From: Mytilus trossulus
Lineage: Eukaryota
DNA: 64,000 nucleotides
Assembly: GCF_036588685.1 (NCBI RefSeq)
Contig: NC_086382.1
Location: 44,665,552 to 44,729,551 of the forward strand
Reading direction: 5' to 3'
Part shown: positions 23,901 to 26,900 of the stretch, one piece after another
Numbering within the stretch: position 1 is the stretch's first letter
Layout: each line of letters opens with the position of its first letter
The notes under the pieces: generated by a model
What the model was told of the DNA's origin: nothing
Databases searched by the model: none
What the model saw: the letters and a program-made list of their open reading frames with translations, nothing else
Position numbers and translations under genes: made by a program

Positions 23901-26900
23901 GTCTTTTCTTTCTCAGAATCCATTTCATTAAGCAATTTCTGTCGTTCAAGTTGACCTCTGGCTATTTGTTCATTTCTGCTAGCTTCGTGGGATGCAGAGG
24001 CTTCTATTGATCTACAAAAAATGGATTATTTAAAACATTTATATACAAATATACTTTAATGTATGTGCTAAAAGACAAGTTCATTCATAACACGTCATAA
24101 TGAAGTTTAATTTATGATTTTTGCACAAATATTAGTTCACCAGTTGCAACTGATTTTTTTTTAAGAAGAATATTAAAGTACTTTAAGTAAGGGTTTTACT
24201 CGTTGTTGAAAGTGACCTATATTTCTGTGTCATTTGGTCTCTTGTTGAGATATGTCTCATGAGCAATCATACAAAATATTCTAATTACTAAATCTGTAAG
24301 TTGTATTGACTGCCTTTATTTATTTTAGTATAATGGGATTCATGGGTTGCTGTCTAATGTATGTTTCCCCACATATTAATGAAGATGCAAATAACAGGAC
24401 TCACTTTGTAGATAGTTCTATAGCTGACTGTACAGATTTACTTAGACTTACTTTGTAGATATTTCTATAGCTTACTGTACAGATTGACTTAGACTTACTT
24501 CGTAGATATTTCTATAGCTTACTGTACAGATTGACTTAGACTTACTTTGTAGATATTTCTATAGCTGACTGTACAGATTTACTTAGACTTACTTTGTAGA
24601 TATTTCTATTGCTGACTGTACAGATTTACTTAGACTTACTTTGTAGATATTTCTATAGCTTACTGTACAGATTTACTTAGACTTACTTTGTAGATATTTC
24701 TATAGCTTACTGTACAGATTTACTTAGACCTACTTTGTAGATATTTCTATTGCTAACTGTACAGATTTACTTAAACTTACTTTGTAGATATTTCTATAGC
24801 TTACTGTACAGATTAACTTAGACTACCTTTGTAGATATTTCTATAGCTTACTGTACAGATTTACTTAAACTTACTTTGTAGATATTTCTATAGCTGACTG
24901 TACAGATTGACTTAGACTTACTTTGTAGATATTTCTATAGCTTACTGTACAGATTTACTTAGACTTACTTTGTAGATATTTCTATAGCTTACTGTACAGA
25001 TTGACTTAGACTTACTTTGTAGATATTTCTATAGCTGACTGTACAGATTTACTTAGACTTACTTTGTAGATATTTCTATAGCTTACTGTACAGATTTACT
25101 TAGACTTACTTTGTAGATATTTCTATAGCTTACTGTACAGATTTACTTAGACTTACTTTGTAGATATTTCTATTGCTAACTGTACAGATTTACTTAAACT
25201 TACTTTGTAGATATTTCTATAGCTTACTGTACAGATTTACTTAGACTTACTTTGTAGATATTTCTATTGCTAACTGTACAGATTTACTTAGACTGACTTT
25301 GTAGATATTTCTATAGCTAACTGTACATATTTACTTAGACTGACTTTGTAGATATTTCTATTGCTAACTGTACAGATTTACTTAAACTTACTTTGTAGAT
25401 ATTTCTATAGCTAACTGTACAAATTTACTTAGACTTACTTTGTAGATATTTCTATAGCTTTCTGTACAGATTTACTTAGACTGACTTTATAAATATTTCT
25501 ATAGCTGACGGTACAGATTTACTTAGACTTACTTTGTAGATATTTCTATAGCTGACTGTATAGATTTACTTTAGACTTACTTTGTAGATATTTTTATAGC
25601 TAACTGTACAGATTTACTTAGACTTACTTTGTAGATATTTCTATAGCTAACTGTACAGATTTACTTAAACTGTCTCTCATCTTAGCATCAACTGGTTCAA
25701 TAGACTGGATATCTACACTGCTGATGACCTGTAAAAACAATAAAATTAGAGTTATTTCTATGTACCAACTACGATATTCATTCATTTATTTTCATGGGTA
25801 CCAATCAGGGTTTCCGCTGGCGGTCGCCATTTTTGCAATTTGCGAAAAATAATAATTGTGGCAAAAAAAATTTGTCATTTGCGAAAGAATTTGGAGAAAG
25901 AAATATATAGAACAATTTATTTTCCTCGATTTTTTTCGAGTTTCTCAGACTTTACCCGTTCAGACAATACTTGGAATTCACCTTGCCCTCATTAAGGTTT
26001 TGACAGAAAATCAATAATCAGCTGATTGCATTTTATAGCTATCGAAAACAAAGGACTATTAATAAAGGTGTTGATTGAATTAATTGACAAAATGATATGG
26101 TTAAATGGCTTCCCCTAAATGTCACATACAGAATTTATTTACCACTTTGCGACGCACGTGTTTGAGGCAAACTTTTGACGTCTCTCCTTTTAAAGATAGT
26201 TTAGAAAAGAAAGCTATTATTGTGACGAAAAATGTTTAAAAGCAATAAAAATCTTTGATTTAAAACTTTAATTATCCTTTGACTTTAATATTGGTAATTG
26301 CTTAGGGAGACTACTTTAAAGTCTTTTGAGTGACACACGTGTTTCAAGCATAGTTTTACGTCTAAACTTTTTCATTTACGATGGTCAAGAAAAGGAAACT
26401 GTCGTCATGAAGAAATCTATACAAAAGGTTGGGAACAAGCCCTCGAATGAGAGTAGGCCTACAATGTTATGACTACACATGAAAAGAGGGATCAATTTCA
26501 TGTGATAAAAGCTTTATTTTGTTGTAAAAACCACTTCTTAGTACAAAAGAGAACATCAGTATTTTTCATTTTAAGAAACTTTCCCTACGAACTATACTAG
26601 TATTATATAATCAAACATGTCCATTAATTTTGTTATATTCCAGGACTTATATCTTCTTTATTATCAAAAGTATATATATAGTGACCCAATCATTTAGAAA
26701 AGTTGTTAAAAATACAATGAATATTTTCCCCTTTTAATTTTAAAAAAAATCTGTTGTTTTAAAGTAAATGTTTAGTGTTTATTCATTAAAATGTTAACTC
26801 TATAAAATAAGTTTGAGACCATAATCATAGACACAATGGGGCAAACTCATCTTATTTAAGGGAGAAGGGAAAAGTATAGCTTATACATACTGAAGGAATA

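Follow-up and report, generated by a model that had tools for sequence, protein, structure and literature searches.

The window analysed here, a 64,000-nucleotide (nt) stretch of the Mytilus trossulus genome (contig NC_086382.1, forward-strand positions 44,665,552 to 44,729,551), carries a gene for the major vault protein (MVP) in which the end of one exon, here called exon A, has been amplified together with its splice donor into a minisatellite of 27 units of 47 bp. The first unit is the authentic exon-intron junction, and the other 26 lie in the intron that follows. The array is best interpreted as a near-neutral boundary minisatellite, of the type known from intervening sequence 7 (IVS7) of F7 and from the so-called mirages of amphioxus, the downstream pseudo-donors of which are probably silent. 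All coordinates follow the numbering of the 64-kb window, and both the array and the MVP gene are read on the minus strand.

Anatomy of the array and of its host exon

The gene was delineated by tblastn with a human MVP query and with transcript-derived homologues. The human query retrieves at least 20 colinear coding segments that run from 43266 to 20843 on the minus strand and span residues 21-850. A conceptual splice of eight exons matches the Pfam families Vault_3 (E 7e-31, 106.6 bits) and MVP_shoulder (positions 1-118 of 118, E 4e-45, 153.2 bits), both above the cut-off. Joining the first donor (G at 25627) to the acceptor at 24013-24012 fuses exon A to the next exon, exon B, and yields a peptide of 109 amino acids (aa) that aligns without gaps to residues 634-740 of rat and human MVP (PDB, E ~1e-29). 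The assignment of the gene to MVP, made in an original prediction from the sequence, is thus borne out. The same colinearity with rat MVP, together with an exon boundary that recurs in four relatives, establishes the first copy of the array as the authentic junction, as had been proposed.

Tandem Repeats Finder (TRF), run on the whole window, places the array at 24398-25671 with a period of 47, 27.1 copies, 93% matches, 0% indels and a score of 2210. A manual parse on the minus strand, in the register TAAGTAAATC...GTAAGTC, resolves 27 units that run from 25667 to 24398; unit 3 has 48 bp owing to an extra A. Unit 1 (25667-25621) comprises the final 40 nt of exon A and 7 nt of intron (GTAAGTC), units 2-27 (25620-24398) are intronic copies with 26 pseudo-donors, and unique intron sequence (CTGTTATTTG...) comes directly after the last unit; both edges of the array are clean. 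The two analyses agree with the predicted 27-copy array of an exon end plus a GTAAGT donor. Its position had been given correctly insofar as the first unit lies at the exon junction; the array, however, starts 40-44 nt before the 3' end of the exon, and the end that had been assigned to it, 25728, is the first base of the exon.

The junction 24-mer GTAAGTCTAAGTAAATCTGTACAG occurs 24 times at no more than 2 mismatches, against 0 in 100 shuffles, and has no occurrence outside the array within the window. This confinement rules out a dispersed satellite or transposon-borne repeat that happens to abut the exon. The direction of origin is from exon to array, because 40 of the 47 nt are conserved MVP coding sequence that is single copy in relatives. 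Units differ from one another by 5.9% on average, and several variants recur, such as a C in column 6 (units 15, 17, 25 and 26) and an A in column 23 (units 7, 9, 11, 20 and 23). That non-adjacent units have variants in common argues for a real minisatellite rather than sequencing noise. No clear higher-order periodicity was found within the array, the mean difference by lag being flat with a slight dip at lags 9-11. The CpG depletion and composition of the array are like those of the surrounding sequence. Three units were folded in search of a hairpin or structured RNA, with unremarkable results (z = -1.1 as DNA and -1.9 as RNA), and a scan of the whole window placed no Rfam family and no tRNA in the array; the suggestion that it might give rise to small RNAs has no support.

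The intron between exons A and B (25627-24012) measures 1616 nt. The 26 extra units account for 1223 nt of it, and without them it would be ~393 nt long. Donor 1 alone preserves the MVP frame. Use of any later donor, or retention of the intron, reads AAG TAA (Lys-stop) and would truncate the protein, in agreement with the original prediction. The AAG TAA that follows the first donor and the stops in most units rule out that the last donor is the real one or that the array is coding. Later MVP exons were located at 23049-22985 (exon C), 22361-22278, 21918 and 20944, and they are in phase with the exons before them only when each of those is spliced from its first donor. All mapped MVP exons are open, colinear and in phase to the C-terminus, and the Pfam domains are complete. 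Judged from these features the gene looks intact, which speaks for continued productive splicing.

A GT site is present in every one of the 27 units. The authentic sequence AAA/GTAAGT (the slash marks the exon-intron boundary) occurs in 21 of them, namely units 1-3, 5, 6, 9-17, 19 and 21-26, the authentic donor included. The others read GTCAGT (units 4, 7 and 8, ending at 25479, 25338 and 25291), AAAG/GTAGTC (unit 18, 24867-24821), GTAGGT (unit 20) and GTGAGT (unit 27, the last of the array). The variants that the original prediction had noted at about 24820 (unit 18) and at about 25290, 25340 and 25480 (units 8, 7 and 4) were therefore correctly placed. Its count of about 27 decoy donors needs revision: pseudo-donors are present, but the downstream GT sites number 26, and 20 of these match the authentic 9-mer exactly. 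Nor does TAA follow the donor in every unit, although the next triplet is a stop in 23 of the 27 (21 TAA, one TAG and one TGA). The claim that every unit encodes the same 13 residues does not hold, as only units 1, 7, 9, 11 and 20 would do so. Three alleles occur in the column of the Leu codon: 8 units have TTA, 11 have TAA and 7 have TCA; the remaining unit has AAA through a change in a neighbouring column.

By their sequence, the pseudo-donors appear to be splicing-competent. The donor hexamers, which occupy 6 of the 47 columns, hold 7 of 46 substitutions and thus no excess of changes. There is consequently no sign of selection disabling the pseudo-donors, as would be expected if they are silent.

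Relatives and further boundary duplications

Orthologous loci were obtained from the contigs behind exon-sized open reading frames (ORFs) that were matched when the joined peptide of exons A and B served as a protein query. Their MVP exons are 75-87% identical to those of the window at the nucleotide level, which identifies the relatives as different species, and their genomic exon ORFs are at most 93-95% identical to the window peptide. The exon A donor reads ACAAA/GTAAGA with an intron of ~563 nt in the first relative (L002, Logan SRR23320469), ACTAA/GTAAGT with ~324 nt in the second (L003 and L004, SRR26215656/5), ACAAA/GTAAGT with ~2140 nt in the third (L005, ENA ERZ25069866) and ACCAA/GTAAGT with ~1400 nt in the fourth (L006, ENA ERZ25073293). 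In all four the 47-bp array is absent after this donor, which is present in single copy. A common boundary without an array implies that the intron position is old and the array lineage-specific, and so answers the question for which the original prediction had recommended a comparison of orthologous introns. It also rules out that the intron was created by tandem duplication (the AGGT or Rogers model), the position being occupied in four relatives that have no array. The orthologous intron of L002 holds an unrelated tandem repeat of 51 bp x 4 (1041-1242 of its contig). The intron between exons A and B seems to gather minisatellites in different lineages.

Two further donor-side duplications are present in the window (Table 1). 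The repeat at the end of exon B comprises the last ~62-69 nt of the exon, depending on the register, with GTAAGT and a few intron bases, and is repeated once with 6 differences in 73 positions; its second donor lies at 23711-23706, and use of it gives an in-frame TGA. The repeat in the CDC5L/Cef1 gene consists of ~22 nt of exon end (TTTGAAAAGAAACCAGCCCCAG), a GTTTGT donor and ~47 nt of intron, repeated once. When 34 exon segments (23 from MVP and 11 from CDC5L) were compared with the adjoining 1.2 kb of intron on either side, exactly three matches appeared, all of them on the donor side and none on the acceptor side. Random placement of the nine arrays with a period of at least 30 bp would lead one to expect ~0.6-0.75 of them to cover one of 40-50 donors, and the probability of three or more is ~0.015-0.03. 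The donor-side enrichment in the window is no more than suggestive. It may reflect nothing but the tolerance of donor-side duplications under a first-come choice of splice sites; alternatively, the lineage may have in common with amphioxus the unexplained propensity for mirages that is reported there.

A repeat of the exon B end and its donor was also observed in L003 (1193-1463; L004 is identical), in ~3 copies with units of 86/67 bp. The edges of these units differ from those of the 73-bp repeat of the window and the pseudo-donors have decayed to GTTAGT/GTTTGT, which makes an independent event probable. L003 and L004 are two samples of one relative; they are 99.9% identical and have equal copy numbers at this repeat.

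Two other sequences were considered as junction repeats. An array of 31 bp x 7.9 at 28983-29225 (74% matches, higher-order periods of 62/123 bp) follows the MVP donor ATCATTGAG/GTAAAC. It was ruled out, since it starts ~18-25 nt past the donor and contains no exon sequence. A 17-bp near-repeat at another MVP donor (30830-30867) was judged to be due to chance, with a score of 48 and both copies in conserved coding sequence.

Taken at its widest, the array could be the most visible sign of a genome-wide propensity for mirages outside cephalochordates, with the 5' splice junctions of this AT-rich lineage as favoured sites for the origin or survival of tandem duplications. We consider this proposal tentative and, on balance, doubtful.

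Table 1. Features of the window, with their positions and the observations on which they are based
Feature	Position	Strand	Basis or description
47-bp minisatellite, 27 units	24398..25667 (TRF 24398-25671)	-	TRF, manual parse, junction-motif count
MVP gene, at least 23 exons, colinear with human MVP	20843..43266	-	tblastn, Pfam, inferred GT donors at 20 exon ends
MVP exon A of 101 nt, with 2 nt of a codon at its end	25628..25728	-	Aligns to rat MVP 634-667; same boundary in L002, L003, L005 and L006
Authentic, upstream-most donor AAA/GTAAGT	25622..25627	-	Join to exon B gives gap-free MVP alignment
Unique rest of the intron, acceptor ...tttttgtAG	24012..24397	-	
MVP exon B, 227 nt, ends in phase 1, exon peptide ending in ECESEIE	23785..24011	-	
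Second boundary duplication, end of exon B, 73 bp x 2.2	23694..23853	-	TRF, self-blast
Third boundary duplication, CDC5L/Cef1 gene, 69 bp x 2.1	58552..58696	-	TRF, sequence, self-blast
CDC5L/Cef1 homologue	51834-62704	-	Pfam Myb_DNA-binding E 3e-21, Myb_Cef E 5e-31
C-type lectin gene	16253-17199	+	Two joined ORF pieces, Pfam Lectin_C E 4e-11

Precedents and competing explanations

The array belongs to a described class of exon-intron boundary minisatellites, in that its unit is arranged head to tail and falls within 10-160 bp, the first monomer holds the authentic junction, and the donor is reiterated downstream; splicing from the upstream-most donor is what we infer for it here. The amplification of an exon-intron junction, which the original prediction had regarded as unusual, is documented in human F7, IFI6, CBS, LMNB2 and PDGFA (PMC1557585), in human ABCA7 (PMC5954066) and in amphioxus (PMC3087553, PMC3902484).

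A close parallel is found in F7 IVS7, in which a 37-bp unit occurs in 5-9 copies and the first monomer spans the exon-intron boundary (Borensztajn et al. 2006, PMC1557585). Splicing in F7 uses the first of the 5-9 identical donors and no other; the pseudo-sites work only if the upstream sites are mutated, and raising them to a consensus value of 91 does not make them competitive (PMC1557585). The MVP array likewise has its authentic donor in the first monomer, followed by identical pseudo-donors in the intron. It differs in its dimensions: the F7 unit has 4 nt of exon and 33 nt of intron, a weak donor (UGG/gugggu) and 5-9 copies, whereas the MVP array has 27 copies, 40 nt of exon and 7 nt of intron, and a strong GTAAGT.

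The same source describes LMNB2 (100 bp, 10-15 copies) and PDGFA (81 bp, 16-18 copies), where the authentic donor only is used, and IFI6/6-16 (25 pseudo-sites) and CBS IVS13 (15-20 copies), where the authentic donor and the next two are used (PMC1557585). In all four the authentic donor is reiterated 10-25 times, as in MVP, and IFI6 with its 25 pseudo-sites is close in copy number. Unlike the two nearest pseudo-sites of IFI6 and CBS, which are constitutively used, the alternatives in MVP are all out of frame and lead to an immediate stop. The isoforms of IFI6 are in frame.

The 25-bp variable number tandem repeat (VNTR) in intron 18 of ABCA7 includes the donor of exon 18 and is highly polymorphic in length, from 12 to ~427 units (PMC5954066). 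A minor isoform retains one unit, and VNTR length correlates with skipping of exon 19 (PMC5954066). As in MVP, the repeat directly flanks the exon, every unit carries a donor GT, with which it begins in ABCA7, and use of the next unit's donor gives a product that is out of frame. The ABCA7 unit differs in being without exonic sequence and in having a documented effect of length, none being documented for the MVP array.

The original mirage paper is reportedly that of Cañestro et al. from 2002. In amphioxus, mirages are boundary tandem duplications in Adh3, in the globins BflGb6/9, in TnC and in PGBD5, with units of 10-160 bp, 81-100% identity and several cases per genome (PMC3087553, PMC3902484). 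They are reported to leave regular splicing undisturbed and to be unstable in length, and the mechanism of their origin is called unclear (PMC3087553, PMC3902484). The window is similar in holding three boundary duplications in two genes of an invertebrate. In contrast, mirages are found in cephalochordates and on both the donor and the acceptor side, whereas the duplications of the window are confined to the donor side (3 of 34 exon segments) in a genome region of 31% GC, and the 27 copies of the MVP array exceed the 3-6 copies of the globin mirages. The Rogers model of intron gain, in the form in which PMC3087553 cites it, also has a tandem duplication with splice signals make exonic sequence intronic; it differs from the case of MVP, where an existing intron was only lengthened and none was created.

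Under the favoured reading, the 47-bp segment, made up of 40 nt from the 3' end of the MVP exon and the 7 nt of intron that follow (GTAAGTC), would have been duplicated in tandem. The edges of the segment have 3-4 nt of microhomology, AGT(T/C), in common. Slippage or unequal exchange, confined to this lineage, would then have raised the number of copies to 27. Because the duplication extends downstream, the first copy retains the full exon context and remains the authentic junction, and the other 26 copies would have become intronic, extending the intron from ~393 to 1616 nt. Selection of the upstream-most donor may occur on a first-come basis in the 5'-to-3' direction or through definition of the 101-nt exon. 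The downstream sites would be largely silent, the next one or two being used to a minor extent if at all, and their products, with AAG-TAA directly after the exon, would be truncated or degraded. The array would accordingly amount to essentially neutral intronic DNA, probably variable in copy number, with occasional mis-splicing as a possible small cost. The divergence of ~6% among units speaks for this reading, as it indicates that they have had time to diverge. Copy-number polymorphism of the array is plausible by analogy. Given that 11 units have TAA in place of the Leu codon TTA of the exon, unequal exchange or conversion into unit 1 could create a nonsense allele.

Several observations weigh against this reading. 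The pseudo-donors are strong by sequence: 7 of their 9 positions agree with CAG/GTAAGT, where the authentic MVP donors (the 20 donors inferred at MVP exon ends) have a median of 6, and they are identical to the real donor across 47 nt of context. Protein searches with the 109-aa exon A plus B peptide and with the 281-aa eight-exon protein found no transcript of the same species, the best junction-spanning proteins being 69-70% identical. Some classical experiments with duplicated donors gave the opposite preference (PMC1557585, discussion), and the length of the ABCA7 VNTR correlates with altered splicing and lower expression (PMC5954066). The precedents with splicing data are all from chordates, and the rule may differ in an invertebrate sequence of 31% GC.

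A rival reading, that of the original prediction, is that the array acts as a trap of decoy donors. A substantial share of transcripts would use the 26 downstream donors or retain the array, the resulting premature termination codons would expose them to nonsense-mediated decay (NMD) or yield truncated MVP that lacks the cap-helix region, and the dosage of vault protein would be lowered or regulated, possibly by copy number. In addition to the 20 downstream sites that equal the authentic 9-mer, one more reads GTGAGT, and the sites score at least as well as typical donors of the MVP gene; every alternative use would meet an immediate stop. The constitutive use of the first two pseudo-sites in IFI6 and CBS (PMC1557585), and the one-unit retention isoform of ABCA7 with exon skipping and reduced expression that track VNTR length (PMC5954066), are in its favour. 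Yet the downstream sites are silent in F7, LMNB2, PDGFA and the amphioxus mirages, and any use of pseudo-sites is limited to the one or two closest to the exon and does not extend to the whole array. For the roles raised in the original prediction, a built-in source of NMD isoforms, U1 sequestration and small-RNA production, the precedents studied by experiment thus mostly point in the opposite direction. Against the trap, too, stands the MVP gene, intact throughout and in frame, along with pseudo-donors that show no mutational decay beyond the array average. Two nearby two-copy duplications of like type suggest a mutational by-product rather than a regulatory device. We therefore consider a decoy trap unlikely, albeit the strongest competitor of the near-neutral reading.

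Far less probable is that selection maintains the array as a landing pad for the U1 small nuclear ribonucleoprotein (snRNP), which would either help to define the short exon upstream of it or, by telescripting, keep transcripts from being cleaved and polyadenylated prematurely within an AT-rich intron. The U1-complementary sites are dense, with 21 GTAAGT in 1.27 kb, and each unit contains AGTAAA, a weak variant of the poly(A) signal. Suppression of proximal poly(A) sites by intron-bound U1 is established in vertebrates, as outlined in PMC6946686. On the other side, four relatives do without the array at the same exon, and the units evolve like a neutral minisatellite, as seen in the triallelic Leu codon column and in donor position +3, which is mutated in five units; no result of the present analysis points to selection.

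Least probable, and only marginally behind it, is an artefact of assembly expansion or collapse, or a decaying MVP pseudogene. Assemblies are prone to errors in tandem arrays, and the draft genome of amphioxus reportedly had one of the mirages assembled wrongly (PMC3087553). No independent sequence of the species turned up for a cross-check in scans of metagenome contigs, with 0 matches to the array junction 24-mer (JGI contigs) and to an exon/array 33-mer, or in exact look-ups of the two window ORFs that a gene caller would report. On the other hand, the differences among units are structured and recurrent rather than random, the array edges are clean, CpG depletion and composition match the surroundings, and all mapped MVP exons are open, in phase and domain-complete.

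The remaining window and the significance of the array

The window has a uniform GC content of 31.3% and an observed/expected CpG ratio of 0.48, and over its full length (1-64000) ORFs do not exceed 202 aa and neither tRNAs nor Rfam matches were found. The GC content lies below the ~41% of Branchiostoma, and no near-identical MVP matches appeared, which makes amphioxus an unlikely source. The CDC5L/Cef1 gene lies head to tail upstream of MVP on the same strand, and the C-type lectin gene lies downstream of MVP on the opposite strand. An MVP intron holds tandem repeats of 135/261 bp and of 161 bp at 39212-40361, in ~4 copies each with 73-89% matches, that are possibly element-derived satellite DNA; a period of ~160 bp presumably recalls the transposon-associated satellites of bivalves. 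A very young tandem repeat of 263 bp x 2.7 (99% matches) at 11098-11797 is apparently non-coding. Two (CAAT)n microsatellites, at 55503-55558 (14 units) and 55683-55770 (22 units), stand 125 bp apart in the CDC5L region.

Taken alone, the MVP array adds one case to a curiosity that is already documented. At the same time, arrays of this kind are natural experiments in 5' splice-site choice; here, 21 identical strong donors compete for a single acceptor, and a functional vault protein results from the first alone. If donor 1 is used exclusively, the 'oriented scanning' rule of F7 would extend from mammalian cells to a distant invertebrate and to a much longer and stronger array; if it is not, the array would be a copy-number-dependent brake on MVP. 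Under first-come selection, only donor-side duplications of a junction would be neutral. The three donor-side duplications in 64 kb and their recurrence in a relative hint that mirages are not confined to amphioxus. If a general propensity of this sort is real, it would imply either a duplication mechanism linked to splice junctions or transcription, or a strong selective filter, and large arrays might measurably modulate the expression of their host genes.

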